From the NCBI GenBank assembly GCA_964646435.1, contig CAZYEJ010000006.1:1965-65964 (forward strand): 64,000 nucleotides of DNA. Direction: 5' to 3'. The position numbers and the translations under genes are program-made. Each line of letters opens with the position of its first letter. Within the stretch, counting starts at the first letter, position 1. This document shows, one piece after another, positions 19,813 to 42,106 of the stretch. Below the pieces are notes generated by a model, which was not told the DNA's origin, did no database searches, and saw only the letters and a program-made list of their open reading frames with translations. The stretch comes from an uncultured Thermodesulfobacteriaceae bacterium (GTDB lineage: Bacteria > Desulfobacterota > Dissulfuribacteria > Dissulfuribacterales > UBA3076).

Positions 19813-20079
19813 TTACCAGGAGCGCTTCTTGCGGCGGTCATCTCGTGCCCTTGCTTCGTTTACCTTTAAATTGCGTCCACCGAGGTCCTTGCCGTTAAGA
19901 GCTTTTATAGCGGCATCGGCATCGGCATTATCCATTTCGGCGAAGCAAAAACCACGCGGTCTCCCTGTATCGCGATCAGTAATCCAATTGAAGGACTCGA
20001 GAGTCCCATACTGCTCAAGCATTTCGCGAACTTCTGCTTCCGTGGTATTAAAGGGCAAATTCCCAATATAAAGTTTCAT
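19813..20079 (-). CDS. RRM (RNP-1) RNA-binding protein
   Basis: KLYIGNLPF (RNP-2) and RGFCFAEM (RNP-1). Confidence 0.9.
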   Translation of the reverse strand: MKLYIGNLPFNTTEAEVREMLEQYGTLESFNWITDRDTGRPRGFCFAEMDNADADAAIKALNGKDLGGRNLKVNEARARDDRRKKRSW

Positions 20080-20202
20080 TAATACATTCCTCTAAGAGCA
20101 ACTGCTATTCATTAATAGTCGTTTTGGATGAAACAAACTTTTAGTTTTAGTGGTTGCTCGGGTTTAAGGGTCATTATAGATAAAATTGGTTGGAAAAATA
20201 AA

Positions 20203-20237
20203 ACGAAAAAAGCGGGTCCTCGAAAGCAAACCCGCTT
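20203..20237 (-). terminator. Intrinsic terminator downstream of csp
   Basis: Minus strand reads AGCGGGTTTGCTTTCGAGGACCCGCT followed by TTTTTT. Confidence 0.7.
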
Positions 20238-20267
20238 TTCGGTGCTAATTTCCGAGTCCAACCGGCA

Positions 20268-20465
20268 CTAAGCGTGCACGTTGGACGCCTGGGGACCCTT
20301 GGGGCCCTCAACCACATCAAACTCCACTGTCTGCCCTTCTTCTAAGGACTTGAATCCACTGCCCTCAATGGCGCTGAAGTGGACGAAGACATCAGGCCCA
20401 TTCTCTTGAGAGATGAAACCGAAGCCTTTTTGATCGTTGAACCATTTTACAGTTCCTTTAGCCAT
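20268..20465 (-). CDS. Cold-shock protein (CspA family)
   Basis: [15 protein letters not shown] and VFVHFSAI motifs. Confidence 0.95.
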
Positions 20466-20493
20466 GCTCTTTACCTCCTTTCCTAAAAACTAT

Positions 20494-20543
20494 GGGCTCT
20501 TTCGACCCATGTGTGTTGCACTTGCCATGGGTTCGAAACGCCC
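20494..20543 (-). promoter_or_regulatory. Long hairpin in the csp 5' leader
   Basis: Minus strand GGGCGTTTCGAACCCATG...CATGGGTCGAAAGAGCCC lies immediately upstream of the AGGAAAGGAGG Shine-Dalgarno sequence. Confidence 0.45.
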
Positions 20544-20616
20544 AAACGGAAAGGATCCGCCATGCAGGTAATTTCTGATCCATACAGAGTGTCATGTTTC
20601 CTCAAGGGCTTAACCA

Positions 20617-20647
20617 CAAAAAAAAGAGGCACTATTTGTAGCCTCTT
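20617..20647 (-). terminator. Terminator-like hairpin upstream of the csp leader
   Basis: Minus strand AGAGGC-TACAAATAGT-GCCTCT followed by T8. No ORF lies upstream on that strand. Confidence 0.4.
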
Positions 20648-20830
20648 TATTTACAGATCTGCCACTTGATAGCCTTATAGACCTACATATAGCTAATTCC
20701 AGCTATACATCCGTAAAACATACGATACGAAACATTTTTTCCAGTGTCAATAAAAAAAACAGGAAGAGCCCCAACTCCGCTAATAGGAGGTGTTGAAAAC
20801 AGCCGGACGATACCCATGGGAAATTTTATG

Positions 20831-20876
20831 TTCACGACAAGTCAAAAGTAGTTTACACTTTGTTGATCTTGTATTT
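20831..20876 (-). repeat. Half copy of family R8
   Basis: TTCACGACAAGTCAAAAGTAGTTTACACTTTGTTGATCTTGTATTT is the reverse complement of 12765-12810, matching at 44 of 46 positions. Confidence 0.75.
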
Positions 20877-20883
20877 TGGCAGT

Positions 20884-20957
20884 GAAATTTGAAATTGGAA
20901 AAGATACAAGTATGTAAATACATTACCTAATTTCGAATTTCGAATTTTAAGTTTCGA
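20884..20957 (+). repeat. Hairpin repeat family R5, copy 2
   Basis: GAAATTTGAAATTGGAAAAGATACAAGTATGTAAATACATTACCTAATTTCGAATTTCGAATTTTAAGTTTCGA. Confidence 0.65.
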
Positions 20958-21052
20958 CAACGGTTCATCCTATTAAATATAATTCTCCTCGGGAAATTTA
21001 ACAAGGTGAACCCTGAACCTGTGAACGCCTATGATATATGTAGGGATAAAAA

Positions 21053-21785: not shown

Positions 21786-22406
21786 ATGCAAGAAGAGAAA
21801 CTCTCACGTCGGGAAAGAGAGAAACTAAGGCATCGTCGCCAGATGCTTGCTGCTGCGCTCGAGCTTTTTTCGGAGAAGGGATTTCATAACGTCTCAATGC
21901 ACGAGATTGCGAAAAGAGCCGAGTTTGCCATAGGTACTCTCTACAAGTTCTTCAAAAACAAGGAAGATCTCTATAAGGCCCTCATGATGGAAAAGGCGGA
22001 GGAACACCACCGGGTCCTTATTAGGGTCCTTTCCGAGGAAAACGATGTCCTTACCGTGATCGACGACTACATTGCCGCCAAGGCTCGGCTTTTCGCCCAC
22101 AACCTTGCAGCATTACGCCTTTATTTTGCAGAAACGCGCGGCGCGAGTTTCAATATCAAGGCCGGGCTTGACCAAGATATCCGCAAGCTGTATGACAAAT
22201 TCATCCTGCAACTGGCTTCTGTACTGGAAACCGGTATCCGTAAAAAGGTTTTTCGCGAGATGGATCCCTATCACATGGCCGTAGCCCTGGAGGGTCTCAC
22301 CAATGCATTTCTCTTCTGTTGTCTGGAAGACCCGGAGCAGCATCCATACGGAGCTAACATTCCGGTGATCAGGGACATGTTTCTCAAGGGAGTCCTGGCC
22401 AAATGA
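21786..22406 (+). CDS. TetR/AcrR-family transcriptional regulator
   Basis: LAAALELFSEKGFHNVSMHEIAKRAEFAIGTLYKFFKNKEDLY helix-turn-helix region. Confidence 0.9.
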   Translation: MQEEKLSRREREKLRHRRQMLAAALELFSEKGFHNVSMHEIAKRAEFAIGTLYKFFKNKEDLYKALMMEKAEEHHRVLIRVLSEENDVLTVIDDYIAAKARLFAHNLAALRLYFAETRGASFNIKAGLDQDIRKLYDKFILQLASVLETGIRKKVFREMDPYHMAVALEGLTNAFLFCCLEDPEQHPYGANIPVIRDMFLKGVLAK

Positions 22407-23539
22407 TGAAAACGAAATATTTTGTATTGTTTGCCCTTTTGCTGACATCGGTTTTTCCCTGGAGCGCGACGGCCGATCCGCCGAATCAGGGCAGCGGCGG
22501 ACCGCCGCTGGTGACGGTTGCGGCAGTCACAGAGCAGGATGTCAACCCGCCGGCGGAATACGTGGGCCATGTGGAGGCCATCCAGAGCGTGGACCTGCGG
22601 GCCCGTGTCGAGGGTTTTCTTGAACAGGTCAAGTTCAGGGAAGGAAGTGATGTCAATGCCGGAAATCTGCTCTATGTCATCGAACAGGCACCTTACCAGG
22701 CCAAGGTTGACGCGGATAGAGCCAGCGTGAACCAGGCAACGGCGACCCTTACCAGGGCCCGTCAGTATCTGCAACGGGTCAGAACTGTTCGTTCTGGAGT
22801 GGTGTCCGCAACAGACATCGACAATGCCGTGGCCGACGAACTCCACGCCAGAGCGCAGCTCCAGGAGGCCAAGGCCGATCTCGATCTATCCGAACTTGAC
22901 CTGGGATACACTATGGTCAGGGTCCCAATCAAGGGACGCATCGGGCGGACCGCTTTCACCAAAGGAAATCTGGTTGGGCCTGATTCAGGGCCTCTGGCGC
23001 AAATTGTCCAGTTGGACCCGATCCGGGTGATGTATTCCATCAGTGAAAATGACCTCTCGGCCGTCAGGGCGACGATTGGCGACTCCTCGCCGGACAAAAA
23101 GAAGTATGCCCTGATTCTCCGTATCAAACTACCCAGCGGCGAAATCCTTAAAACCGCCGGGCATGTGGATTTTGTGGATAATATAGTAGATGCCAAGACC
23201 GGCACCATTGCGATTTGGGCTATATTTGACAACCATGACGGTTTGCTGCTGCCGGGACAGTATGTCACCGCTCTGATAAGCCGGAGTCAGGGCAAACAAC
23301 TGCCGATGGTGCCGCAGGCAGCCGTCCAGGAAGACCATGATGGGCGATATGTGCTGGTTGTGGATAGCGAGAACAAGGTCATCCAGCGTCGCATCACTAC
23401 CGGGCCGGTTGTCTACACTCAATGGGCCGTCGAATCAGGGCTGGCGGCCGGAGAAATGGTCATTGTGCAGGGAGTGCAGAAAGTTCGGCCCGGACAGATT
23501 GTAAAAACCATTACCGAGGACGAACAGAACAGGATGTGA
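22403..23539 (+). CDS. RND efflux periplasmic adaptor (MFP)
   Basis: Signal peptide. GHVEAIQSVDLRARVEGFL, QAPYQA and DLGYTMVRVPIKGRIG. The start overlaps tetR by 4 nt. Confidence 0.9.
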   Translation: MMKTKYFVLFALLLTSVFPWSATADPPNQGSGGPPLVTVAAVTEQDVNPPAEYVGHVEAIQSVDLRARVEGFLEQVKFREGSDVNAGNLLYVIEQAPYQAKVDADRASVNQATATLTRARQYLQRVRTVRSGVVSATDIDNAVADELHARAQLQEAKADLDLSELDLGYTMVRVPIKGRIGRTAFTKGNLVGPDSGPLAQIVQLDPIRVMYSISENDLSAVRATIGDSSPDKKKYALILRIKLPSGEILKTAGHVDFVDNIVDAKTGTIAIWAIFDNHDGLLLPGQYVTALISRSQGKQLPMVPQAAVQEDHDGRYVLVVDSENKVIQRRITTGPVVYTQWAVESGLAAGEMVIVQGVQKVRPGQIVKTITEDEQNRM

Positions 23540-23542
23540 TGC

Positions 23543-26500
23543 ATGTTTTCCAGAATTTTTATTGAACGCCCGCGCCTGGCTGCAGTGGTGTCGATTATTA
23601 TCACCCTGGCCGGGCTGATTGCCATGCTGAACATCCCCGTGGCCCAGTATCCCCGGATCACCCCTCCTGAGATCCGGGTGACCGCGGTCTATCCGGGAGC
23701 CAACGCCCAAGTCGTGGCCGACAACATAGCCGCACCGATTGAAAAGGAAGTAAACGGCGTTGAAAACATGCTCTATATGTCCTCCACTTGTTCCAATGAC
23801 GGACGCTACGAACTGGCCGTAACCTTTGCTGTAGGCACCGATTCGGACATCGACCAGGTCAACCTTCAAAACCGGGTGCAACTCGCCACCCCCAAGCTTC
23901 CGAAAGATGTAACCGAGCAGGGGATAGATATACGTAAACGCTCTTCGGATATGCTGGCGGTGATCTGTTTCTTTTCTCCCGAAGGCACCAGGGACAAACT
24001 TTTTTTGAGCAACTATGCAAGCCGGGAAATAAAGGATGCCCTGGTACGTATTAACGGCGTAAGTGATGTCTTTATTTTCGGGGAATTCGAATACAGCATG
24101 CGTATCTGGATGGACCCGGAGCGTCTCACCTCCATGGGTATGACCGCGGATGACGTGATCACCGCCATCCGTGAGCAGAATGTCCAGGCGGCAGTTGGCT
24201 CGATCGGATCAATGCCTGCCGGTGATGACCAGCAAATTCAGTATACCTTGCGGGCCAAGGGTCGTCTTAAGGCAGTTGAAGATTTCAAAAATATTATTGT
24301 CCGCACTAACGCCAAAGGTGGTCTGGTGCGAATCAGCGACATTGCCCGTGTAGAACTTGGTGCCCGGTCTTACGGTACCAAGTCGATCCTAAACGGCGCC
24401 CCGACCCTGGGAATGGCGGTTTACAGGTCCTCAGAAGCCAATGCCCTGGATACCATGAAGGAGGTCAGGGCCAAGCTTAAACATCTTGCCCAGCGTCAAC
24501 CGAGCGATGTTCAATACCAGATCGTTTACGACACTACCAAGTATGTCTCCGCAGCCATCCATGAGATTGAGCTGACGCTGTTTATCACCTTTCTCCTTGT
24601 GGTAGGCGTAACCTTCCTTTTTTTGCAGGATTGGCGGGCCACACTCGTCCCCACCGTGGCTATTCCAGTGTCGCTGATAGGGACATTCGCTGTGCTGTTT
24701 GCCCTTGGCTTTAACGCCAATACTATTTCCCTGTTTGCCCTGATCATGACCATCGGTCTGGTGGTCGACGACGCCATTGTGGTGGTGGAAAATGCGCATC
24801 GGGTCATACATGAGACAAACCTCAGCCCAAAAGATGCAACCATCAGGGCCATGGGCCAGGTCACAGGGCCCATCATCGCCACCACCCTGGTTCTGCTGGC
24901 CGTATTTGTCCCTGTCGGATTTGTGCCGGGCATCACAGGGCAACTCTACAAACAATTTGCCATGACCTTATGCACGTCAGTGGTCATTTCTTCAATCATC
25001 GCCCTGAGCCTGAGCCCTGCGCTCTGCGCTGTCCTGCTCAGGCGGAAAAGTCCTATCCGGCGAGGGCCCTTGGCCTGGTTCAACAGGGCGCTCGATGCAT
25101 CACGTAACAGATACGTGGCCGGGTCTGCATGGCTGATAAGACGGCTGGTCGTAGTACTACTGATTTTAGTCGGTGTATTCGGCGCTTCCTACTACTTGTT
25201 TGAGACCCGTCCCACCAGCTTTTTGCCCCAAGAGGACCTGGGCGCCTTTTTTTTCGATGTTCAGCTCCCCGAGGCCTCCGCGCTGGACCGCACGGCTAAG
25301 GTTATGCAACAGATCACCAAAGAGATCAAAGGCATTAAGGGTGTCCAGGATGTCATTGGGGTAAGCGGATTCAGCCTGCTCAGCGGGAATGCTGAAAACG
25401 TTGGATTTGGTATCGGGATATTGGACACTTGGGATAAGCGCACCAGTCCGGGCTTGCAGTTGAATGCTATAGTAGGACAGGCCCACGGAAAACTGGCTGC
25501 CATCTCCTCGGCCAACAGTTTTGCTTTTGTCCCCCCGCCCATCCAGGGCCTCGGGATGACCGGCGGGTTTGACTTTCGGCTGCAGGCCCTGGGGGACCAG
25601 AGCCCCCAAGAACTTGCCGCTGCAACCCGAGCAATGGTCATAGCCGCCAACCAGGATCCGGCCCTGATGAGGGTTTTCAGTACCTATACGGCCAATACGC
25701 CTCAGATCTTCGTGAACCTTGATCGCACCAGGGCTGAAACGCTTAAGGTGCCGGTCAGCAGGGTATACGAAACCCTGCAAGCCCAGCTTGGATCAAGATA
25801 TGCAAACGATTTCAACCTCTATGGACGAGTCTATCAGGTCAAGGTCCAGGCCGATGCGCCCTACCGCGACACGGTAAAAGACATTGGCAAACTGTACGTA
25901 CGCAGCAATGAAGGCAAGATGGTGCCCATGGACAGTCTGGTAACCCTGTCCACGGTCCTGGCCCCCCAGATTGTGAACCGTTATAACCAGTTTACCAGCG
26001 TCCAGATTAGCGGTGGAGCAGCTCCTGGTTTCAGTTCCGGGGATGCCATGGCGGCGATGAAACGGGTGGCGGCCAAGACACTGCCCGAGGGATATGCCTA
26101 TGACTGGTCAGCAATGTCATTTCAGGAACGGAAAGCCATTGGCCAGGTCTCGATCCTTTTCCTCCTGGCCCTTGTCTTTGCTTATCTTTTTCTGGTGGGT
26201 CAGTATGAGAGCTGGAACATCCCGTTATCCATTATCACCTCGATCCCTGTCGCTGTTCTCGGGGCATTAGTCGGTCTGTGGATCGTAGGGCTTAACCTCA
26301 GCATCTATGCCCAGATTGGCCTGGTGCTGTTGGTGGGTCTGGCCAACAAAAACGCCATTCTTATCGTGAAATTTGCCAAAGACCGGCGGGAACAAGGGTT
26401 GCCCGTGGCCGAGGCCGCGGTGGAGGGAGCACGAATCCGCTTCCGTCCTGTTTTGATGACGGCCTTTTCCTTTATTCTGGGTGTGACGCCTCTGGTAATC

Positions 26501-26677
26501 GCCACGGGCGCAGGCGCGGGCAGCCGCCGGGCTATCGGGACCACTGTCTTCAGCGGCATGCTGGCGTCAACGCTGTTTGGTATCTTTCTGATCCCGGCGC
26601 TTTATTATGCCTTTCAGACGTTCCGTGAAAAGGGCACTGCCTGGCGCACGCGTCCGCGGGACAATAAGGAATCCTGA
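23543..26677 (+). CDS. RND multidrug efflux permease (AcrB/HAE1 family)
   Basis: MFSRIFIERPRLAAVVSIIITLAG. Length 1044 aa. GLVVDDAIVVVEN motif. Confidence 0.95.
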   Translation: MFSRIFIERPRLAAVVSIIITLAGLIAMLNIPVAQYPRITPPEIRVTAVYPGANAQVVADNIAAPIEKEVNGVENMLYMSSTCSNDGRYELAVTFAVGTDSDIDQVNLQNRVQLATPKLPKDVTEQGIDIRKRSSDMLAVICFFSPEGTRDKLFLSNYASREIKDALVRINGVSDVFIFGEFEYSMRIWMDPERLTSMGMTADDVITAIREQNVQAAVGSIGSMPAGDDQQIQYTLRAKGRLKAVEDFKNIIVRTNAKGGLVRISDIARVELGARSYGTKSILNGAPTLGMAVYRSSEANALDTMKEVRAKLKHLAQRQPSDVQYQIVYDTTKYVSAAIHEIELTLFITFLLVVGVTFLFLQDWRATLVPTVAIPVSLIGTFAVLFALGFNANTISLFALIMTIGLVVDDAIVVVENAHRVIHETNLSPKDATIRAMGQVTGPIIATTLVLLAVFVPVGFVPGITGQLYKQFAMTLCTSVVISSIIALSLSPALCAVLLRRKSPIRRGPLAWFNRALDASRNRYVAGSAWLIRRLVVVLLILVGVFGASYYLFETRPTSFLPQEDLGAFFFDVQLPEASALDRTAKVMQQITKEIKGIKGVQDVIGVSGFSLLSGNAENVGFGIGILDTWDKRTSPGLQLNAIVGQAHGKLAAISSANSFAFVPPPIQGLGMTGGFDFRLQALGDQSPQELAAATRAMVIAANQDPALMRVFSTYTANTPQIFVNLDRTRAETLKVPVSRVYETLQAQLGSRYANDFNLYGRVYQVKVQADAPYRDTVKDIGKLYVRSNEGKMVPMDSLVTLSTVLAPQIVNRYNQFTSVQISGGAAPGFSSGDAMAAMKRVAAKTLPEGYAYDWSAMSFQERKAIGQVSILFLLALVFAYLFLVGQYESWNIPLSIITSIPVAVLGALVGLWIVGLNLSIYAQIGLVLLVGLANKNAILIVKFAKDRREQGLPVAEAAVEGARIRFRPVLMTAFSFILGVTPLVIATGAGAGSRRAIGTTVFSGMLASTLFGIFLIPALYYAFQTFREKGTAWRTRPRDNKES

Positions 26678-26752
26678 CTGGATGAACAAGATTTACATGA
26701 TTCACTTTTATCCTGTTGATCCTGTCAAAAAAATGTAAATTCCTATACTATT
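26674..26752 (-). repeat. Hairpin repeat family R1, copy 2 (inverted); overlaps the RND stop codon
   Basis: The reverse complement reads AATAGTATAGGAATTTACATTTTTTTGACAGGATCAACAGGATAAAAGTGAATCATGTAAATCTTGTTCATCCAGTCAG. Confidence 0.7.
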
Positions 26753-26783
26753 TAATAAAAATGTGTTGCAAATGGAAATAACC

Positions 26784-28376
26784 ATGAGATCCATAGCGTT
26801 CAAACGACATCACTATAGGCAGGTTGGCGTGGGGGCGCGCTGTACACTGATTATCCCGGTTGCCGCGATCATCATCCTGATCTTGGCCGGATGCGCGGCC
26901 GTTGGGCCGGACTATGCCAGGTTAAAGCCCCAGGCACCAAAAGAATGGCACACCCAACTTCAGGGCGACCTGACCGCTGATCGTCTGAATCCTGAAACCA
27001 TGGCCAACTGGTGGACCACTCTCAACGACCAAGAACTATCCAGTCTGGAGGAGCGTGCCATCAAAGGCAATTTGAACCTAAAAGATGCCCGTGCCAGGGT
27101 CCGTGAAGCCAGGGCACTGCGGGGCATTGAGAAAGCGGTTTTTTTCCCCTCCCTGGATGCAAGCGGCTCGGCCTCGAAACGGCGGAGCAGCGAAAACAGC
27201 GGTACCGGAACGGAGAGCAAACTCTACCAAGCCGGTTTTGACGCAGGCTGGGAACTGGATATTTTCGGCGGTGTTCGACGCTCAGTAGAAGCGGCACAGG
27301 CAGACCTTGAAGCTGCTCAGGAAGACCTGCACGACGTGCTGGTAAGCCTGCTTGCCGAAGTAGCGCTGAACTATGTGGATACCCGGACCTATCAGGCCCG
27401 CCTGGCTGCCATCAAGGCAAATATGAAGGCCCAGCAGGATATCTATGAACTGAATCTTTTACGCTACAAAGCGGGTCTCATTGATGAACTGGCCGTCCAG
27501 CAGTCTCGCTATATTCTTGAAAGCACCCGTTCCCGGATCCCGACGCTGGAGACTGGCCTGGAAAAGGCAAAAAACAGGCTGGCCGTCCTGCTCGGCGAGA
27601 AGCCTGGCGCAATGCACAGAGAACTGGCGGAGGCAAAACCGATTCCAGTGCCTCCGGTAATGGTGGCAGTCGGAATCCCTGCGGAGACCATGCGTCATCG
27701 GCCGGATATCCGCAGAGCAGAACGTAACCTCGCGGCCCGGACGGCCAGGATCGGTGTGGCCACGGCAGATCTCTATCCCAAATTCCGTCTGGCCGGCAGC
27801 ATCGGGCTTGAATCCATTTCCAGCAGCAATTTTTGGGAATGGGCCGGACGAACATGGAGCATCGGCCCGGGCGTTTCCTGGAAAATTTTCCATGCGGGAG
27901 CCATCCGGCAGAATATCAAGGTGCAGACTGCCCGCCAGAAACAGGCCCTGGTCCAGTATGAATCAGCAGTGCTCATCGCTCTTGAGGAGGTGGAAAACGC
28001 AGTTACGGCCTATGCCAGGGAACAGCTTCGGCTGGAATCGCTGAAAGCTGCTGTATTGTCCGCGAGGCGTGCATATGAATTGTCCCGGGACCTTTATAAT
28101 GCAGGGCTCGTAGATTTCAGCGATGTTCTTGATGCAACCCGCTCCCTTCAATCTTACCAGGATGAACTGGCCGGCAGCGAAGGCACAGTAACTTCAAACC
28201 TGATTCGTCTTTACAAGGCCCTCGGCGGGGGCTGGAAATCGCTGGAACCCTCTTTAATTGTTCGAAAAAATAAGGAAGGTGACCATAATGAATCAAAAAC
28301 AAGACAGCCTTCTGGAACGTACATTGGGTATAGATCAGCCTTCGGGGTGGAAGAGGCACCTGAAGCTATGGATTAG
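26784..28376 (+). CDS. Efflux outer-membrane lipoprotein (NodT/OprM family)
   Basis: Lipobox LILAGC. Ends LYKALGGGW, then carries an unusual extension of about 45 aa. Start is ATG 26784, or the tracked 26763. Confidence 0.88.
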   Translation: MRSIAFKRHHYRQVGVGARCTLIIPVAAIIILILAGCAAVGPDYARLKPQAPKEWHTQLQGDLTADRLNPETMANWWTTLNDQELSSLEERAIKGNLNLKDARARVREARALRGIEKAVFFPSLDASGSASKRRSSENSGTGTESKLYQAGFDAGWELDIFGGVRRSVEAAQADLEAAQEDLHDVLVSLLAEVALNYVDTRTYQARLAAIKANMKAQQDIYELNLLRYKAGLIDELAVQQSRYILESTRSRIPTLETGLEKAKNRLAVLLGEKPGAMHRELAEAKPIPVPPVMVAVGIPAETMRHRPDIRRAERNLAARTARIGVATADLYPKFRLAGSIGLESISSSNFWEWAGRTWSIGPGVSWKIFHAGAIRQNIKVQTARQKQALVQYESAVLIALEEVENAVTAYAREQLRLESLKAAVLSARRAYELSRDLYNAGLVDFSDVLDATRSLQSYQDELAGSEGTVTSNLIRLYKALGGGWKSLEPSLIVRKNKEGDHNESKTRQPSGTYIGYRSAFGVEEAPEAMD

Positions 28377-29361: not shown

Positions 29362-29625
29362 AAATGTATAGACCAAGGAGTACCTGATGAAAAAAATGAC
29401 AGCAGTGACCTTGGACCACTATCGGATTTAACGTTACTGACTAAATCGTTAATCTCCCTGGAAGCTATGCAAAAGAGGTCCATGAGGATAAAAGCCAAGG
29501 AGCATTAATAAGGACAGCAAGATATCCAGTGGCTGGTCGTTGCAGAAGCGTTCAGCAGTCGCTGAGGGTTGGGGAACAATAGATCGATATCGAGTGGCGA
29601 TTTTGAAAAGACGGATAGTAAGCTG

Positions 29626-30777
29626 ATGCAATTAACCCAGTCACAAAAGGCACACATACGACACCTTAAAAGTACTGATGGATTAATACTGCTCAAGAGT
29701 TCCGGCAATTGGACGATTGATGCCCTTCGGGATGCCGCCGGGATGTTAGAGCAATTTTCAAAGAAGACCCGCAATGAATCCATCCAGTGGGATGTTTCTG
29801 ATGTTGGGCGTGTTGATTCGGCAGGTATGATGCTTTTTATCCACTATTACGATTTGCTGAAGTCCAACAACTGCTCCATTGAAGTCATTGGCGCCAAGGA
29901 TGAGCATGAAAAGATGTATCGGCTGCTGCGAGAGTATGCACCCGGACATCCTGTGGTCGGACCTGCTTTTTCCTCCCGTTTCCTGAGGATCTTTAACGGA
30001 ATAGGGAAAATCTCAGTGGCGTTTGTGCTGGATATAGCGGCATTTCTCTCTTTTGTCGGCGAAAATTTTGTGATCTTTCTTACCTCTTTGCTCAATCCGT
30101 TTTCCATCCGGTTTGGCGCAATTGTGAAAAATATTGAAGATGCCGGCGTGCGCGCAATGCCTATCGTTGCCCTGACCAGTTTTTTAATCGGGATTGTGAT
30201 CGCCTACCAGGGCGCTGTGCAGCTTGAGAAGTTCGGCGCCCATATCTTCATTGTGGACATGATCGGCATCTCGGTCACCAGGGAACTTGCCCCACTTATC
30301 ACTGCCATAGTTGTGGCCGGTCGTACCGGTTCCTCTTATACCGCACAACTTGGCGTGATGAAGATAACTGAAGAGATTGATGCCATGCGCACCATGGGAT
30401 TTGATCCCCACCGCTTTCTCGTGCTGCCGCGCATCATGGCCTTGATGATTGCCCTGCCGCTTATGATTTTTTTTGCCGATATAGTCGGTATTCTTGGCGG
30501 CATGTTTATCTCTCATGTCCATCTGCACCTCTCTTATGCCGAGTTTCTCCACCGGTTGCAGACTGCTCTTGAAATGAAGCATGTATGGATTGGTATTGGT
30601 AAAGGTCCGTTTTTCGCCTGGCTTATCGCCTCCGTCGGCTGTTTCCGTGGCTTTCAGGTCTCAAAAAGTACGGAAAGCATAGGACGTTACACCACCATCA
30701 GTGTTGTTAACGCTATTTTCCTGGTGATTGCATGTGACGCACTCTTTTCAGTAATATTAACGGAGCTTGGCATTTGA
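29626..30777 (+). CDS. MlaE-family ABC permease with an N-terminal STAS-like domain
   Basis: N-terminus reads LLKSSGNWTIDAL...WDVSDVGRVDSAGMMLF (STAS pattern). C-terminus is an MlaE core (ELAPLITAIVVAGRTGSSYTAQLGVMKITEEIDAMRTMG). ATG 29626 is preferred over the tracked TTG 29569. Confidence 0.85.
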   Translation: MQLTQSQKAHIRHLKSTDGLILLKSSGNWTIDALRDAAGMLEQFSKKTRNESIQWDVSDVGRVDSAGMMLFIHYYDLLKSNNCSIEVIGAKDEHEKMYRLLREYAPGHPVVGPAFSSRFLRIFNGIGKISVAFVLDIAAFLSFVGENFVIFLTSLLNPFSIRFGAIVKNIEDAGVRAMPIVALTSFLIGIVIAYQGAVQLEKFGAHIFIVDMIGISVTRELAPLITAIVVAGRTGSSYTAQLGVMKITEEIDAMRTMGFDPHRFLVLPRIMALMIALPLMIFFADIVGILGGMFISHVHLHLSYAEFLHRLQTALEMKHVWIGIGKGPFFAWLIASVGCFRGFQVSKSTESIGRYTTISVVNAIFLVIACDALFSVILTELGI

Positions 30778-31541
30778 GTGACACCGTTATCACAGTTTTA
30801 AATGTTGTGACCCGGTTCGGCAAAAACGTGGTCCATGACGGCATCAGCCTGAATGTGCGCCAGGGTGAAATCTATGGGCTTCTTGGCGGCAGCGGATCAG
30901 GGAAATCAACTTTAATGAAAGAGATTATCATGCTGCAGCGTCCCCAGTCCGGAGAGATCAGAGTTCTTGGTCAAAACCTTTTGACCATTACCCGTGCCGG
31001 TGCAACCATGCTGCGACGGCAATGGGGTGTGCTTTTTCAGGCTGGCGCCCTCTATTCTTCTCTCACGGTTAGGGAAAATGTTGGGATAAAGCTCAAGGAG
31101 TATACTGATCTCCCCTTGAAACTAATCCAGGATATCGTGCGCCTGAAGATAAATATGGTTGGTCTTCCTGAACATGCAGCGGATCTCTATCCGGCGGAAC
31201 TGAGTGGCGGCATGGTCAAACGGGCGTCATTGGCACGGGCGTTGGCCATGGACCCGAAGCTGCTGTTTCTTGATGAACCGACCTCAGGGCTGGATCCCGT
31301 GGGCGCAGAGGCTTTTGACAATTTGATTCTTAAACTGCGGGAGGTCCTTGGTTTAACCGTTGTAATGGTAACCCATGATCTTGATTCCATCTGGACTGTA
31401 GTTGACCGTTTTGCCGTACTGGGCGAAAAGAAAGTGATTGCGGAAGGCACTCTTAATGAGGTCAGACAAAATACTCATCCCGTTATCAAAAAGTTCTTCG
31501 GGGGAAAGCGGGGGCTGATAAGGAGTCGGAATGGAAGGTAG
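30774..31541 (+). CDS. MlaF-like ABC ATPase
   Basis: GGSGSGKST, LSGGMVKRASLARAL and LLFLDEPTSGLD. Confidence 0.9.
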   Translation: MSDTVITVLNVVTRFGKNVVHDGISLNVRQGEIYGLLGGSGSGKSTLMKEIIMLQRPQSGEIRVLGQNLLTITRAGATMLRRQWGVLFQAGALYSSLTVRENVGIKLKEYTDLPLKLIQDIVRLKINMVGLPEHAADLYPAELSGGMVKRASLARALAMDPKLLFLDEPTSGLDPVGAEAFDNLILKLREVLGLTVVMVTHDLDSIWTVVDRFAVLGEKKVIAEGTLNEVRQNTHPVIKKFFGGKRGLIRSRNGR

Positions 31542-32427
31542 AATCAATTATACGATTGTCGGACTCTTTGTTGTTCTGTTGTTGGCAGGTCTGATAGCTT
31601 TCATTTACTGGCTAGGCAAATATAGCGGCAAACAGGAATATGACCATTATTATGTCTATATGTCGGAATCGGTTTCCGGATTGAGCGCTGATGTTTCCGT
31701 TAAATACAGGGGCGTTGACGTAGGTACTGTGGAGCATATAGGTATAAATCCGAAAAATTCCGAAGAGGTGGAACTTCTTTTGAAAATCAAACATGATACT
31801 CAAGTTAAGGTGGACACCACGGCCACGCTTGAGTTTTTCGGAATAACGGGGCTGGCCTTTGTTGAGCTCAAAGGGGGCAGCAAAGACGCTCCGCTGTTCA
31901 GCAAAACAAAAGACGAGATTCCTGTCATTCCTGCAAGTCCTTCAACCTACGCACGACTCAATAAATCCATGACCATACTTGCTGCAAAATCGGCAATGGC
32001 CCTGGACAAGTTTGACCGGCTGCTCAGTGAGAAAAATCTGCAAAACATTGAAGATATACTTTCTGAAACAAAGATCCTCGCCAAAGATATCAGAGGGCAA
32101 CTGCAAGGATTCCAGAACCTCGTTGATAACGGTGTTGTCATGGAGAAACGCGTTGTCGGGGCTTTTGAAAAGGTTGAAGACGCCTCTGTCAGTGTTGAGA
32201 AAATGGCCGACGGCCTGGAGAAAAACTATGCTGACATCGGTCGTAATATAAGCCAAGATGCGCGACAGAGTCTTGAATCGTTTAATAAACTGCTTTACGA
32301 ATTGGGTATTCTGGTGGGAGATCTGCAAAGAACAACCCGCGCTATTGAAGCCAGTCCTGGAGATCTGATATTCAAACGCTCTCAGCCGCGGCCAGGACCT
32401 GGAGAGGAGGGATACAGTGAAAAATAG
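31531..32427 (+). CDS. MCE/MlaD-family substrate-binding protein (298 aa)
   Basis: N-terminal TM helix followed by the MCE domain (VSVKYRGVDVGTVEHI). Confidence 0.85.
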   Translation: MEGRINYTIVGLFVVLLLAGLIAFIYWLGKYSGKQEYDHYYVYMSESVSGLSADVSVKYRGVDVGTVEHIGINPKNSEEVELLLKIKHDTQVKVDTTATLEFFGITGLAFVELKGGSKDAPLFSKTKDEIPVIPASPSTYARLNKSMTILAAKSAMALDKFDRLLSEKNLQNIEDILSETKILAKDIRGQLQGFQNLVDNGVVMEKRVVGAFEKVEDASVSVEKMADGLEKNYADIGRNISQDARQSLESFNKLLYELGILVGDLQRTTRAIEASPGDLIFKRSQPRPGPGEEGYSEK

Positions 32428-33034
32428 GCTCTATATGGTCTTCGTATTGACCTGTATACTGCTCGCAGGATGCGTGACCAAAACCGTTCCTCCCGCCTCC
32501 ATCTATACGATATCGCCTGAATGGGACAGCAGTGAAGCCCAAGAGGAAACAGGAAAAAAGAATTCTACTATTATTAAAATGGCTTCGGTTCGTGGAACGC
32601 GAGCCCTTACAGGCACCGAAATCTTTTATACTGATGCACGGTATGGCCAGAACAGCTATGCTTACAGCCGCTGGAGTGATGCGCCGGTCAGATTGCTGCA
32701 AATACTCTTCCAGGTTGCCTTGGAAAAAAGTGGCCGGTTTGGGGCTGTGGTTCCTCCCGCCTCCGCTTCAGAAGCCGATCTGCTTTTGGAAAGCACTCTG
32801 TTTGATTTCAGCCACCATATCAAAGATGACGGAACTTCTGAAGGAGTCATCAGGGTACGTTTTTATGTCATAGATAATACGACAAAAAAGGTAATTGCAA
32901 CGAAAGAGTTTGTGTCCAGGGTGCCGGCATCCTCGCAGAATGCTCAAGGCGCCGTGGCCGCACTCAACAAGGCTGCGACAAATGTCGCCCGCAGCCTTAT
33001 TGCTTGGCTTGCCGAACCCGGCAGGATTTTGTAA
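32417..33034 (+). CDS. ABC-type transport auxiliary lipoprotein (DUF330-like)
   Basis: Lipobox LLAGC. Its size and its position after the MCE gene fit the family. The TAA stop lies inside repeat R2 copy b. Confidence 0.65.
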   Translation: MKNRLYMVFVLTCILLAGCVTKTVPPASIYTISPEWDSSEAQEETGKKNSTIIKMASVRGTRALTGTEIFYTDARYGQNSYAYSRWSDAPVRLLQILFQVALEKSGRFGAVVPPASASEADLLLESTLFDFSHHIKDDGTSEGVIRVRFYVIDNTTKKVIATKEFVSRVPASSQNAQGAVAALNKAATNVARSLIAWLAEPGRIL

Positions 33035-37696: not shown

Positions 37697-38125
37697 TCAG
37701 GCCAGGACTTTGTCCTTGCTGAATCGAATTTCCATAGCCCTCACAGGGCAGACTGCTACACAGAGTTCACACCCTGTACATTCTTTGGGGTCAAAGATCA
37801 CTTCCATAGTCTTTCGATCCATGTACAGTGCATGACTAGGGCAGATCCCGGTACAGGCACCACACTGGTAACATATGTCATCGTTTCTGCGAATTTCCTG
37901 TTCTACGGATTTTACGCTAACACCCAGATCCTTCAGATAGCGAATTCCCTCTCTTACATGTTTTTTGTGCCCGGTGAGTTCAAGTACCATTAGGCCTTCT
38001 AGGCCAGGGAGTATTTTTGCCTTAAGTATGTTAAAGGACAGATCATATTTGCGACTGAAATTACAGATCAGGGGTTTATCTGTGACCTCCGGCGGAAAGC
38101 GGAGAACAAGGACCTTTGTGTACAT
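37697..38125 (-). CDS. NIL-domain / 2x[4Fe-4S] ferredoxin fusion protein
   Basis: The N-terminal region contains the literal NIL tripeptide (LSFNILKAK). It is followed by CYQCGACTGICP and CTGCELCVAVCP. Confidence 0.8.
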   Translation of the reverse strand: MYTKVLVLRFPPEVTDKPLICNFSRKYDLSFNILKAKILPGLEGLMVLELTGHKKHVREGIRYLKDLGVSVKSVEQEIRRNDDICYQCGACTGICPSHALYMDRKTMEVIFDPKECTGCELCVAVCPVRAMEIRFSKDKVLA

Positions 38126-39613: not shown

Positions 39614-40060
39614 TTACACGCTCCCAAAAGTATATTTACTGATTAATTCCTCAAGGTCAATAGCTGATTCAGTTTCCGTAATGGTTTCGCCGGGCTGAAG
39701 TATAATATCAGAGCCGCCCGGCGTAATTTTGATAAATTTATCTCCAATCATGCCGCTTGTTTTGACTGATGCAATGGCGTCGTCTGTGATTTGAACATCC
39801 TTATGGATTTTGAGTCTCACCAAGGCCATCTCTCTTTCCAAATCCAGGCCGATTTTGCTGACACGCCCAATCTCAACACCGGCCATCTCCACGCTGCTAT
39901 CGGTTTTCAGACCGGAAACCGAATTGAAGCGTGCGTACAGGATGTAATTCTCTCCCCCGATAAGTTCCATCTTGCCCAACTTGATGGTAAAATAGCCAAC
40001 ACAAAGAAGACCGATAAAGACAAATATGCCCACGATTGTTTCCATGGAATACTTTTTCAT
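39614..40060 (-). CDS. mlaD: MlaD (single MCE domain, 148 aa)
   Basis: TM helix followed by SVSGLKTDSSVEMAGVEIGRV. Confidence 0.88.
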   Translation of the reverse strand: MKKYSMETIVGIFVFIGLLCVGYFTIKLGKMELIGGENYILYARFNSVSGLKTDSSVEMAGVEIGRVSKIGLDLEREMALVRLKIHKDVQITDDAIASVKTSGMIGDKFIKITPGGSDIILQPGETITETESAIDLEELISKYTFGSV

Positions 40061-41292
40061 GCTGTTTCACCGTGTTTTATACACTCGAGATGAGCGATTA
40101 TTTTTTGATGTGACAAGGCCTGTTCTATTAAGGAATCCATATCTGTCCCAGGTCCGGCTTCGGCCAGTCCGGCCAATATGGAAAAACTGAAACAGGCTTT
40201 AGGATAGCTTTTGGCCTGGAAAATTTCCTGTTTCTGCAGGTCTATTGCCAATTCATCGATGACCTGTTTGGCTTTTTTAAGACCTGTATGTGGCAGGACC
40301 ATCAGAATCTCGTTTTGACTATACCATGCAGAGGTATCTGCCGTGTCGAAATGGTCCTTTATAAGCATCGCAAGGCACTGGACAATTTGTTGGGCTGCTA
40401 TATGGCCGATATGCTTATTGATCTGTTCCAGATTATCTATGGTAAACATTATAACAGGAAAACTTTCCTGAAGACGGTTCACGCTGTCCATTTCCTGAAT
40501 GAGCATGTCCTTGACGTCTTGTTTGGTGTTCAATCCTGTCAGCTCATCCTTTAGGTTTGTCTGACCTTTGATGAATTCTTGAACGACCGGGTTTTCAGAC
40601 TGCTCAAGTTCTATGGGTGTGCCCTGGAAGGGAATCTTGCCCTTATCGATGATGGCGACACGATTAGAAATGAAAAAGACATCCGGGATATCGTGACTGA
40701 CCAGAACGGCTGTAAACCCAATTTTTTTCTGGTGATGTGCGATCATACCCAAGACCGCATTTTTGCGGAGTGGGTCAAGACCAGTGGTCGGTTCGTCAAA
40801 AAGGATGATCTTGGGTGCAGTGACGAGTGCCCTGGCCAAGGCTACACGCTTCTGCATGCCACCAGAGATCTGGGACGGGTACTTGTAGGTGACCTCGGAA
40901 AGCTCCATCTGATCAATTTTGGCCAGTACCTTGCTTTTTATAGCGTCTTCTCGCAGCCTGGTTTTTTCTCTGAGCGGCAGGGCAATATTTTCAAAAACCG
41001 TAAGTGAGTCAAACAGGGCGTTATTCTGGAACATGTAACTTGCCTGCCGTTTGAATGATTTTCGCTCTTTCCGGGTCAAGCCTTTGAGTTGCTTGCCATT
41101 GAAAAGGATTTTTCCCTCATCAGGCTTGAGCAGGCCAATGATGTGTTTGAGCAAGACGCTTTTGCCCTCTCCGCTTTTACCGATAATTGTCGTGATGTCA
41201 CCTTCAAAAATGGTAAGATTGAGCCTATCAAGGATAGTTCGGGTGCCAAACCGTTTGGTCACTTTTTTTAATTCTATCAGCGGAACAGTCAC
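40057..41292 (-). CDS. mlaF: MlaF-like ABC ATPase fused to a C-terminal degenerate GGDEF-like domain
   Basis: Residues 1-245 carry GKSGEGKS, QISGGMQKR and ILFDEPT. Residues about 248-411 read DELTGL...TIDNLEQINKHIGHIAAQQIVQ...SQNEILMVLPHT, which follows the GGDEF fold pattern with the catalytic residues replaced. Confidence 0.8.
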   Translation of the reverse strand: MTVPLIELKKVTKRFGTRTILDRLNLTIFEGDITTIIGKSGEGKSVLLKHIIGLLKPDEGKILFNGKQLKGLTRKERKSFKRQASYMFQNNALFDSLTVFENIALPLREKTRLREDAIKSKVLAKIDQMELSEVTYKYPSQISGGMQKRVALARALVTAPKIILFDEPTTGLDPLRKNAVLGMIAHHQKKIGFTAVLVSHDIPDVFFISNRVAIIDKGKIPFQGTPIELEQSENPVVQEFIKGQTNLKDELTGLNTKQDVKDMLIQEMDSVNRLQESFPVIMFTIDNLEQINKHIGHIAAQQIVQCLAMLIKDHFDTADTSAWYSQNEILMVLPHTGLKKAKQVIDELAIDLQKQEIFQAKSYPKACFSFSILAGLAEAGPGTDMDSLIEQALSHQKIIAHLECIKHGETA

Positions 41293-41299
41293 GACGTCC

Positions 41300-42106
41300 T
41301 CACAGGAGAAATGAAGTCAAGACATAGTCTACAACTAAAACCAATACGCATGAAAGAACCACCGCTGAAGTCGTAGCCAGGCTTACCCCTTTGGCACCAA
41401 AGCCGCCGGGACGCATATGCATAAAATAGCCCTGATAGCAACAGATAGTGGCGACTATTATCCCAAAAGCAAAGGCCTTGATAAAGCATCCTTTCACGTC
41501 TTGCATGGCTACATTGGGCTCGATGCGGTTAAAATAAATACCGGAATTGATGCCCAAAATGCAGACACCTGAAAGGTAGCCGCCTACGATCCCGATTACA
41601 TTAAAAATTGCAGTAAGCAAGGGAAAACTGATTAGAGATGCAACGATACGTGGACTGACCAGAAAGCGGATGGGATTGATGTCCATGGTCTCAAGTGCAT
41701 CGATCTGCTCGGAGATACGCATGATGCCAATCTCTGCAGCCATGGATGAACCTGCCCTGGCGATAATCATGAGTGCTGTCATGACCGGTCCCAATTCACG
41801 TATAAGTGAGAGCGCCACTACCGCGCCAAGCACTCCCTCTGATCCGAATTTAACCAGTGTATAGTAGCCCTGTAGCCCCAGGACCATGCCGGTGAAAAGG
41901 CCTACCAGAAGGATAATCAAGGTAGACTTGGCCCCGATGAAGAAGACCTGCTCTATGGTCTTGCGCACTTGAAGGGGCAGAGAAAAAATCAGGGCAATCG
42001 CGTGAATGAAAAAAAGCGCAATGGCCCCTAGTTCACCAAGAAAAGCAATAGAAACTTTGCCCAACCGGTTGAACGGTGCAAATATGGAATTGGTCGCTTG
42101 AGCCAT
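41300..42106 (-). CDS. mlaE: MlaE ABC permease
   Basis: IRELGPVMTALMIIARAGSSMAAEIGIMRISEQIDALETM. Confidence 0.9.
   Translation of the reverse strand: MAQATNSIFAPFNRLGKVSIAFLGELGAIALFFIHAIALIFSLPLQVRKTIEQVFFIGAKSTLIILLVGLFTGMVLGLQGYYTLVKFGSEGVLGAVVALSLIRELGPVMTALMIIARAGSSMAAEIGIMRISEQIDALETMDINPIRFLVSPRIVASLISFPLLTAIFNVIGIVGGYLSGVCILGINSGIYFNRIEPNVAMQDVKGCFIKAFAFGIIVATICCYQGYFMHMRPGGFGAKGVSLATTSAVVLSCVLVLVVDYVLTSFLL

Follow-up and report, generated by a model that had tools for sequence, protein, structure and literature searches.

A degenerate GGDEF-fold domain is fused to the C-terminus of the Mla transporter ATPase MlaF in Thermodesulfobacteriota

The stretch of 64,000 nucleotides analyzed here (referred to below as the window; positions 1,965 to 65,964 of contig CAZYEJ010000006.1, assembly GCA_964646435.1) belongs to an uncultured Thermodesulfobacteriaceae bacterium and contains an mlaE-mlaF-mlaD-mlaC-mlaA cluster. 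The mlaF gene of this cluster encodes, downstream of the ATP-binding cassette (ABC) ATPase and in frame with it, a C-terminal domain with the GGDEF fold of diguanylate cyclases, in which the canonical catalytic residues are replaced. The fusion is widespread in Thermodesulfobacteriota, mislabeled in databases, and uncharacterized in the searchable literature. We tentatively propose that the domain is a folded module for dimerization or stabilization of the MlaF dimer, possibly with a regulatory role.

Results

In the nucleotide-binding domain (NBD) of the fusion protein, Pfam ABC_tran matched residues 21–170 (E 2.5e-36), and the Walker A, signature, and Walker B motifs were all present. The nearest solved structures of the NBD in a Foldseek search were the MlaFs of Escherichia coli, Pseudomonas aeruginosa, and Acinetobacter baumannii, with target-normalized template-modeling (TM) scores of 0.81–0.89 and 37–38% identity; mycobacterial MceG was also among the nearest structures. 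An initial annotation, made from the DNA letters and their translations, had assigned residues 1–245 to an MlaF-type ATPase, in agreement with these results. The best NCBIfam match of the fusion protein was the MlaF equivalog NF008809 at 201 bits, which is under its cut-off of 441. Because a score below the cut-off is expected for a distant phylum, we assigned the protein as an MlaF ortholog by its gene context and not by the equivalog score. The context of mlaE, mlaD, mlaC, and mlaA was found in the window, in at least 23 related genomes, and in Desulfocurvibacter africanus, and we conclude that the fusion protein is the ATPase component of a genuine MlaFEDCA-type phospholipid transporter. 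The cluster is tight and co-directional; in every related locus mlaE directly precedes the fusion gene, and in every fusion locus mlaD is kept directly 3' of it. Gene calling carried out independently on the contig of the source metagenome (ENA ERZ27317826, 96.9 kb) yielded the same 411-residue product. An assembly or frameshift artifact as the origin of the fusion was rejected, since the same open reading frame (ORF) recurs in independent assemblies and in a complete genome. A promoter and terminator scan of the mla operon gave fewer sites than were found in shuffled sequences.

The initial annotation had further recognized a GGDEF-like pattern in the C-terminal part by eye, and profile and structure searches bore this out. 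On the full protein, the Pfam GGDEF profile (PF00990) scored 62.3 bits (E 6e-17) against a gathering cut-off of 23.8; on the isolated C-terminal 166 residues it scored 65 bits, and there was no other significant Pfam match. A phmmer search of PDB sequences with the C-terminal domain returned diguanylate cyclases only, down to an E-value of 1e-9. The AlphaFold2 model of the domain alone (residues 232–411) had a predicted local distance difference test score (pLDDT) of 89 and a predicted TM score (pTM) of 0.82. In the PDB, this model matched GGDEF structures only, including PleD, WspR, PadC, DgcB, DosC, and SadC (Foldseek probability 1.00, TM approximately 0.7, 17–25% identity). Neither Pfam nor Foldseek gave a STAS match for the domain, whose fold is GGDEF and not STAS. 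The C-terminal domain is a true GGDEF fold of diguanylate-cyclase descent. All strings that the annotation had quoted (GKSGEGKS, QISGGMQKR, ILFDEPT, DELTGL, TIDNLEQINKHIGHIAAQQIVQ, SQNEI, LMVLPHT, and SFSILAGLA) were found in the translation, and nucleotides 40060–40551 correspond to residues 248–411 as it had given them. In the full-length AlphaFold2 model (mean pLDDT 84.6, pTM 0.59), the C-terminal domain had pLDDT values of 76–94. The domain starts approximately 7 residues past the NBD core (EFIKGQ, corresponding to QFLDG of E. coli), so that a folded domain follows the NBD directly. In the domain-only model, the last helix of the NBD and the N-terminal helix of the GGDEF domain form one helix (residues 235–252), and the junction is short and rigid. 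GGDEF dimers on a stalk helix, namely GCN4-WspR (3i5c) and DgcB (6ttr), were among the top structural matches.

The residues of the domain were mapped by hand onto PleD numbering from the phmmer alignments to solved cyclases. The metal-binding D327 of PleD corresponds to Thr284, K332 to Glu289, the guanine-contacting D344 to Gln301, and R366 to Trp323, whereas the guanine-contacting N335 is kept as Asn292. The GGEEF signature is replaced by SQNEI (residues 325–329), with Asn at the position of E370, and the RxxD inhibitory site (I-site) by DTAD (residues 316–319). K442 corresponds to Lys397 and R446 to a His, neither position being conserved in the family. Because the canonical catalytic residues are replaced, the domain of the window protein, as judged from this alignment, cannot be a diguanylate cyclase, and canonical nucleotide binding appears to be lost as well. 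A non-catalytic domain with substituted metal and catalytic acids, and with no RxxD five residues upstream of the motif, was what the initial annotation had predicted.

The same replacements were found across the 156 members of the family. None had GG[DE]EF, and SQNEI was the commonest variant. The D327-equivalent position was T, S, or R, that of D344 was Gln in 131 members and His in 13, and that of E370 was mostly Asn or Asp; the N335 equivalent was retained in 59 members, and the equivalents of K442 and R446 were variable. RxxD was present in 8 of the 156, exactly five residues upstream of the motif: in a 403-residue Desulfobacterales subclade (L007, L008, L012, L019, L021, and P0269), in P0066, and in P0122. 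The conserved fold core consists of Gly253, Gly296, Gly375, and Pro334 together with hydrophobic positions. The most conserved polar residue of the family was an Arg at the R366-equivalent position (145/156 members and 45/46 close relatives). Trp at this position occurred only in the window protein and its identical database copy (P0156); this copy is present in several assemblies, and Trp323 is thus not a read error. A Cys at the position of Cys367 and a C-terminal Cys occurred together in 132 of the 156 members, and 141 had a Cys within the last 22 residues. Cys367 and Cys404 flank the last two beta-strands in the full-length AlphaFold2 model. To our knowledge, such a pair is absent from canonical GGDEF domains. 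Across the family, then, the pocket is remodeled (Arg in 145/156, Gln or His in 144/156, and Asn or Asp) and accompanied by a conserved Cys pair. With the fold core conserved and the catalytic and GTP contacts lost, a structural or interaction role fits better than nucleotide chemistry.

Recovery of the family required an exhaustive phmmer search and a full-length profile search; word-indexed searches for homologs of the isolated C-terminal domain returned 3 proteins each, as the domain is too divergent for the index. The exhaustive phmmer search (query residues 190–411, 1.84 billion cluster representatives) gave approximately 20 full-length representatives of the same layout with 388–426 residues, plus many fragments. 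In the profile search of 5.8 billion proteins clustered at 90% identity, 117 of the best 120 clusters were 403–438-residue proteins with PF00005 and PF00990; among the members were proteins of Thermodesulfatator, of Thermodesulfobacteria metagenome-assembled genomes (MAGs), and of the cultured D. africanus (Desaf_0216, WP_014258438.1, UniProt F3YTW8), which lies in an mla operon of the same layout. Among GTDB species genomes, at least 23 species had a fused MlaF of 403–418 residues, in all of them in the gene order mlaE-mlaF-mlaD-mlaC(-mlaA) and in most with the mlaD start −3 to +43 nucleotides from the stop of the fused mlaF. The hosts were labeled Desulfobacterales, Desulfobacteraceae, Syntrophaceae/Smithella, 'Deltaproteobacteria', and Desulfovibrionaceae. 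Most carriers are Thermodesulfobacteriota, and the hosts are largely anaerobic sulfate reducers and syntrophs. Single MAGs labeled Nitrospiraceae, Lentisphaerales, and Hyphomicrobiales also carry the fusion; these cases could be binning errors or transfers. In a Nitrospiraceae-labeled MAG (L027:8001-9246), the fusion gene is broken by a frameshift near nucleotide 8200, the sign of a pseudogene or else of an assembly error. UniProt and RefSeq have contained the architecture since the genome of D. africanus, under the automatic annotation 'diguanylate cyclase'; other database names are 'ATP-binding cassette domain-containing protein' and 'phospholipid/cholesterol/gamma-HCH transport system ATP-binding protein'. 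No NCBIfam model is dedicated to the MlaF-GGDEF fusion, and no paper describing it was found in full-text literature searches. The initial annotation had known of no described fusion of this kind; this holds for the literature that was searched, whereas the survey of architectures shows that the fusion is not rare.

The two halves of the protein have diverged to different extents, with a mean pairwise identity of 59% for the NBD and 26% for the C-terminal domain. Pfam GGDEF scores ranged from 131 bits (P0122) through 62 (window protein) and 19–23 to undetectable (L020); L020 was still recognized as a family member by hhalign (probability 94.9%). In pairs with unsaturated synonymous divergence (dS), the ratio of nonsynonymous to synonymous substitution rates (dN/dS) was 0.12–0.22 for the C-terminal domain versus 0.06–0.08 for the NBD. 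The C-terminal domain is under purifying selection, relaxed approximately twofold, and from its dN/dS it is functional. In a neighbor-joining tree of the NBD (approximately 245 positions, 200 bootstraps), whose deeper branching is unreliable because of the method and the number of positions, the hypothesis that the fusions share one origin and are strictly monophyletic was rejected: such a topology appeared in 0/200 bootstraps, and plain MlaFs nested inside the fusion clade in 199–200/200 replicates. The plain MlaF L024 was the sister of the fusion L007, and the plain MlaFs L025 and L029–L033 stood beside the 403-residue Desulfobacterales fusions, L029–L033 being supported in 185/200. This nesting implies at least two losses of the domain inside Desulfobacterales.

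The member with the highest score, P0122 (L082:5001-6281, GCA_029001845.1), has GGKEF, an RKSD I-site, and every GTP-contact residue. Its gene is part of an mlaE-F-D-C operon, and by its NBD it nests among the plain MlaFs of the Nitrospira type. P0122 is probably an independent, younger fusion in another MlaF lineage and, by its residues, the best candidate for real c-di-GMP binding. The Opitutales protein L079 and P0150 were rejected as hyper-degenerate members (hhalign probability 0.8%, no Pfam match). These verrucomicrobial MlaFs of 384–388 residues (L079:7989-9140, from an Opitutales MAG, and P0150) have a different C-terminal extension of approximately 140 residues. Additions to MlaF seem to recur at its C-terminus.

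As the initial annotation had stated, there is no STAS gene in the mla operon, and the scanned ORFs of the window included no stand-alone STAS protein. A second MCE-type ABC system in the window, approximately 10 kb from the fused mlaF, does have a STAS-like domain on its permease, and this is the only STAS/MlaB-like sequence in the window. The assignment of this domain (residues approximately 46–125 of the permease) is backed by three matches that are weak but concordant: NCBIfam mlaB_1 (E 6e-6), Pfam STAS_2 (E 1e-5), and, as the sole PDB match, E. coli MlaB (E 0.004). The second system also has a 298-residue MlaD-domain protein and an ABC_trans_aux lipoprotein. In the somewhat more than 50 loci that are closest among those with a plain MlaF (Desulfosarcina, Desulfobacula, Nitrospira, Geobacter, Brocadia, and Verrucomicrobia), an mlaF of 245–266 residues is followed by mlaD at −13 to +130 nucleotides, with neither MlaB nor the C-terminal domain, and in close relatives the plain MlaFs extend only 5–20 residues past the NBD. 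The exception was L080, with a gap of 590 nucleotides between mlaF and mlaD. A split gene or a stand-alone form of the domain in the plain-MlaF relatives was rejected, as this sole large gap has no ORF of 80 residues or more. Absence of an operonic MlaB is therefore the rule in these lineages, with or without the domain, and the comparative data do not support the argument that the GGDEF-like domain replaces MlaB because MlaB is missing.

Table 1. Features of the mla cluster and of the second MCE-type system in the window (aa, amino acid residues)
Feature	Position	Strand	Evidence or remarks
mlaE, ABC permease, 268 aa, first gene of the operon	41300..42106	(-)	Pfam MlaE, E 3.6e-77
Fused mlaF, 411 aa, GTG start, second gene of the mla cluster	40057..41292	(-)	
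mlaF NBD, residues 1-245 (Walker A GKSGEGKS, signature SGGMQKR, Walker B ILFDEPT)	40558..41292	(-)	Pfam ABC_tran, E 2.5e-36
Short linker and degenerate GGDEF-fold domain, residues 246-411, in frame with the NBD	40060..40557	(-)	Pfam, PDB matches, AlphaFold2, Foldseek, dN/dS
Pfam GGDEF match, residues 248-392	40117..40551	(-)	
SQNEI, residues 325-329, at the GG(D/E)EF signature site	40306..40320	(-)	Alignments to solved cyclases
Trp323 codon TGG, at the PleD R366-equivalent position	40324..40326	(-)	
DTAD, residues 316-319, at the RxxD inhibitory c-di-GMP site	40336..40347	(-)	Hand mapping from cyclase alignments
Cys367, first Cys of the conserved pair	40192..40194	(-)	Cys in 134/156 family members
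Cys404, second Cys of the conserved pair	40081..40083	(-)	Cys in 38/59 redundancy-reduced members
mlaD, MCE protein, 148 aa, start overlapping the mlaF stop codon	39614..40060	(-)	Pfam MlaD, E 1.5e-19
mlaC, periplasmic lipid carrier, 201 aa	38969..39574	(-)	Pfam MlaC, E 6e-43
mlaA, outer-membrane lipoprotein, 264 aa	38131..38925	(-)	Pfam MlaA, E 3.6e-68
Second MCE-type ABC system (permease, ATPase, MlaD-domain protein, lipoprotein)	29569..33034	(+)	
Permease of the second system, 402 aa, STAS/MlaB-like N-terminus fused to MlaE	29569..30777	(+)	
Plain ATPase of the second system, 255 aa	30774..31541	(+)	

Three further co-directional genes follow mlaA: one for a NIL-4Fe4S protein, one for an MnmA-type tRNA 2-thiouridylase, and one for a radical-SAM MiaB-like protein. 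The first of these (37697-38125, minus strand), 5 nucleotides 3' of mlaA, encodes 142 residues with a NIL domain and a 2x[4Fe-4S] ferredoxin; the MnmA-like and MiaB-like genes then follow it without a gap. NIL is the fold of the C-terminal regulatory domain of MetN. In tblastn searches, the NIL-ferredoxin gene was not found beside mla in related loci. Elsewhere in the window, ORF sizes, order, and N-termini pointed to a cluster of a TetR regulator, a membrane-fusion protein, a 1044-residue RND pump, and an outer-membrane factor (21786-28376, plus strand). Its G+C content is 0.54–0.55 versus approximately 0.42–0.50 elsewhere in the window, and the cluster may have been acquired horizontally. 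A region of approximately 1 kb at 20072-21052 contains no ORF of 70 residues or more and has the lowest G+C content of the window (0.42); no Rfam family matched in it at the gathering threshold.

Discussion

GGDEF domains act as homodimers, often on a helical stalk. We suggest, as a tentative reading, that the C-terminal domain of the fused MlaF is a folded dimerization or stabilization module for the MlaF dimer, possibly a regulatory one, and a dimerizing or regulatory tail is more likely than a sensor of c-di-GMP or GTP. The two GGDEF-like domains of the dimer would be seated beneath the NBDs, where, as a pair, they would hold both ATPase subunits together on MlaE; the module may also have a regulatory role. 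The dimerization beneath the NBDs, its effect on the transporter, and any regulatory input are steps that we infer from the point of attachment, the homodimers formed by GGDEF domains, the continuous helix, the matches to stalk dimers, and a known rescue of E. coli MlaF by GCN4. The GGDEF-like domain is attached at the exact start point of the C-terminal 'handshake' extension of approximately 25 residues in E. coli MlaF. This extension is essential, as its deletion abolishes function; it acts via NBD dimerization, and a GCN4 dimerization domain placed at the same position largely restores function (Kolich et al. 2020, eLife, PMC7367683). In E. coli, MlaB is required for the stable association of MlaF, and the extension docks at the MlaF–MlaB interface of the neighboring subunit (PMC7367683); the extension and MlaB together hold the ATPase dimer on MlaE.

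Known systems offer partial likenesses to the proposed dimerization module. The MlaFs of the MlaFEDB complexes of E. coli, A. baumannii, and P. aeruginosa (6xgy, 6xbd, 6z5u, and 7cha) have a similar NBD and the same operon partners MlaE, MlaD, MlaC, and MlaA, and in them, too, an element that acts on the dimer is attached where the NBD core ends. However, E. coli has an unfolded extension of approximately 25 residues and a separate MlaB, whereas here there is a folded domain of 165 residues in an operon without MlaB. The GCN4 fusion of MlaF lacking the C-terminal extension also places a dimerizing module at the same point of MlaF in place of the handshake (PMC7367683); it is an artificial coiled coil in an E. 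coli that contains MlaB, whereas the natural domain is globular. By this analogy, the natural fusion may be an evolutionary counterpart of the engineered one. MetN (C2/NIL domain), MalK, and ModC resemble the fusion protein in having a compact alpha/beta domain directly after an NBD that is a separate subunit. The C-terminal domains of MetN, MalK, and ModC dimerize below the NBDs and control NBD closure. In contrast, the fold here is GGDEF/palm-like, the C-terminal parts do not superpose meaningfully, and dimerization is a proposed feature. Folded C-terminal regulatory domains that dimerize under the NBDs were described for MetN, MalK, and other ABC ATPases, and E. coli MlaF is without one (PMC7367683). 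A GGDEF fold with a destroyed GG(D/E)EF motif in a non-cyclase protein is found in PelD, PopA, FimX, LapD, CsrD, GdpP, and BcsE, but none of these is known to be fused to an ABC ATPase; PelD, PopA, and BcsE, moreover, keep RxxD and bind c-di-GMP, unlike the window protein with its DTAD. The STAS-MlaE permease of the second MCE system is also a case of a cytoplasmic accessory domain in cis on an MCE-type ABC transporter, although there a STAS domain is on the N-terminus of the permease and not a GGDEF domain on the C-terminus of the ATPase, which is plain.

Several observations weigh against a dimerization module. The relative placement of the NBD and the GGDEF domain is uncertain because the pTM of the full-length model is 0.59. 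When the C-terminal domain is aligned to MetN by Foldseek, the root-mean-square deviations are 9–10 Å, and a MetN-like arrangement derived from these long alignments was rejected, since such values are not meaningful. Close plain-MlaF relatives manage without the domain and without MlaB, and the repeated losses indicate that the domain is accessory and not essential for assembly of the complex. The remodeled pocket and the Cys pair, in addition, could point to a ligand or redox function rather than to pure scaffolding.

The other readings that we considered are not all mutually exclusive with a dimerization module. The initial annotation had proposed that the domain may take the role of MlaB and could couple phospholipid trafficking to a nucleotide signal such as GTP or c-di-GMP. 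For the domain to replace MlaB, it would dock on MlaF at the helical subdomain, either of its own chain or of the neighboring subunit, and stabilize or activate the ATPase as MlaB does. The mla operon has no STAS gene, the E. coli extension docks at the MlaF–MlaB interface, so that a domain attached there could reach the site (PMC7367683), and the STAS domain in cis on the permease of the paralogous MCE system indicates that the lineage does fuse accessory domains. However, approximately 50 plain-MlaF loci have neither MlaB nor the domain, at least two losses of the domain occurred without gain of a neighboring gene, the GGDEF fold is unrelated to STAS, and the domain is attached at the start of the extension, whereas the main contact of MlaB is the MlaF helical subdomain. 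MlaB is, moreover, sparsely distributed across bacteria (PMC10665443). These points leave an MlaB-like role improbable. In the case of nucleotide sensing, the degenerate GGDEF domain would bind c-di-GMP, GTP, or another nucleotide and tune the MlaF ATPase, coupling lipid trafficking to second messengers. Degenerate GGDEF domains are known elsewhere as receptors for c-di-GMP or GTP (PelD, PopA, and the GGDEF domain of CC3396), and PelD, PopA, FimX, LapD, CsrD, GdpP, and BcsE are degenerate GGDEF receptors or scaffolds. Within the family, the RxxD motif is kept in the 403-residue Desulfobacterales subclade, P0066, and P0122, the last of which has all GTP contacts, and the Arg at the R366-equivalent position and the Gln or His at that of D344 are strongly conserved. 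The window protein, by contrast, has lost the I-site, the metal ligands, the guanine-contact Asp, and the triphosphate contacts (DTAD for RxxD, Thr for the metal Asp, Asn for E370, Gln for D344, Glu for K332, and Trp for R366). These losses are mostly family-wide, given that RxxD is found in 8/156 and the N335 equivalent in 59/156 members and the K442 and R446 equivalents vary; P0122 apparently arose by a separate fusion event within another lineage of MlaF. Judged on these residues, nucleotide sensing is plausible in the RxxD subclade and P0122 and unlikely in the window protein, and as an account of the domain in general we hold it to be unlikely.

The conserved Cys pair suggests another possibility, a redox or metal switch in which Cys367 and Cys404 would form a reversible disulfide or a metal site that modulates the transporter in strict anaerobes. 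Both Cys are present in 132/156 members despite a mean domain identity of 26%, they flank the last two beta-strands, and anaerobic sulfate reducers and syntrophs make up most of the hosts. On the other hand, approximately one-third of the divergent members lack one Cys, no further conserved His or Cys ligands were seen, and residue conservation is the sole basis for such a switch, which we regard as quite doubtful. The domain could also be a decaying relic, in which an ancestral active or c-di-GMP-binding GGDEF domain is now a functionless appendage drifting to loss. Its very fast evolution (26% versus 59% identity for the NBD), the fall of the Pfam scores from 131 bits to undetectable, the repeated losses, and the mutation of the family's most conserved polar residue in the window protein are in line with decay. 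A relic is nevertheless very unlikely, as dN/dS is well under 1 (0.12–0.22), the frame and a length of 403–418 residues are kept across several classes of the phylum, AlphaFold2 predicts the fold with confidence, and conservation extends to the Cys pair and the Arg/Gln pattern. Finally, the tail might be a true signal input to Mla that gates closure of the MlaF dimer, responding to c-di-GMP in the ancestral or RxxD forms and P0122, and in proteins of the window type to another ligand in the Arg/Gln/Asn pocket or to redox state through Cys367–Cys404. We consider such an input somewhat unlikely.

The assembly and regulation of the Mla ATPase are still debated and have so far been known only from proteobacterial MlaFEDB complexes with MlaB and the handshake extension. 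As a dimerization module, the GGDEF-like domain would be a different solution to the stabilization of the NBD dimer and a natural counterpart of the engineered GCN4 rescue. The fusion in the cultured D. africanus provides a tractable test case, and variants with and without the I-site permit a direct test of a link between c-di-GMP and envelope lipid homeostasis. The name 'diguanylate cyclase' is a systematic misannotation of transporter ATPases by NCBI and UniProt, and it inflates the counts of c-di-GMP enzymes in sulfate reducers. If the tail does prove to be a signal input, Mla would offer the first example of outer-membrane lipid transport under direct control by a second messenger or by redox state, and MlaF would be the first ABC ATPase with regulation through a GGDEF-fold domain.

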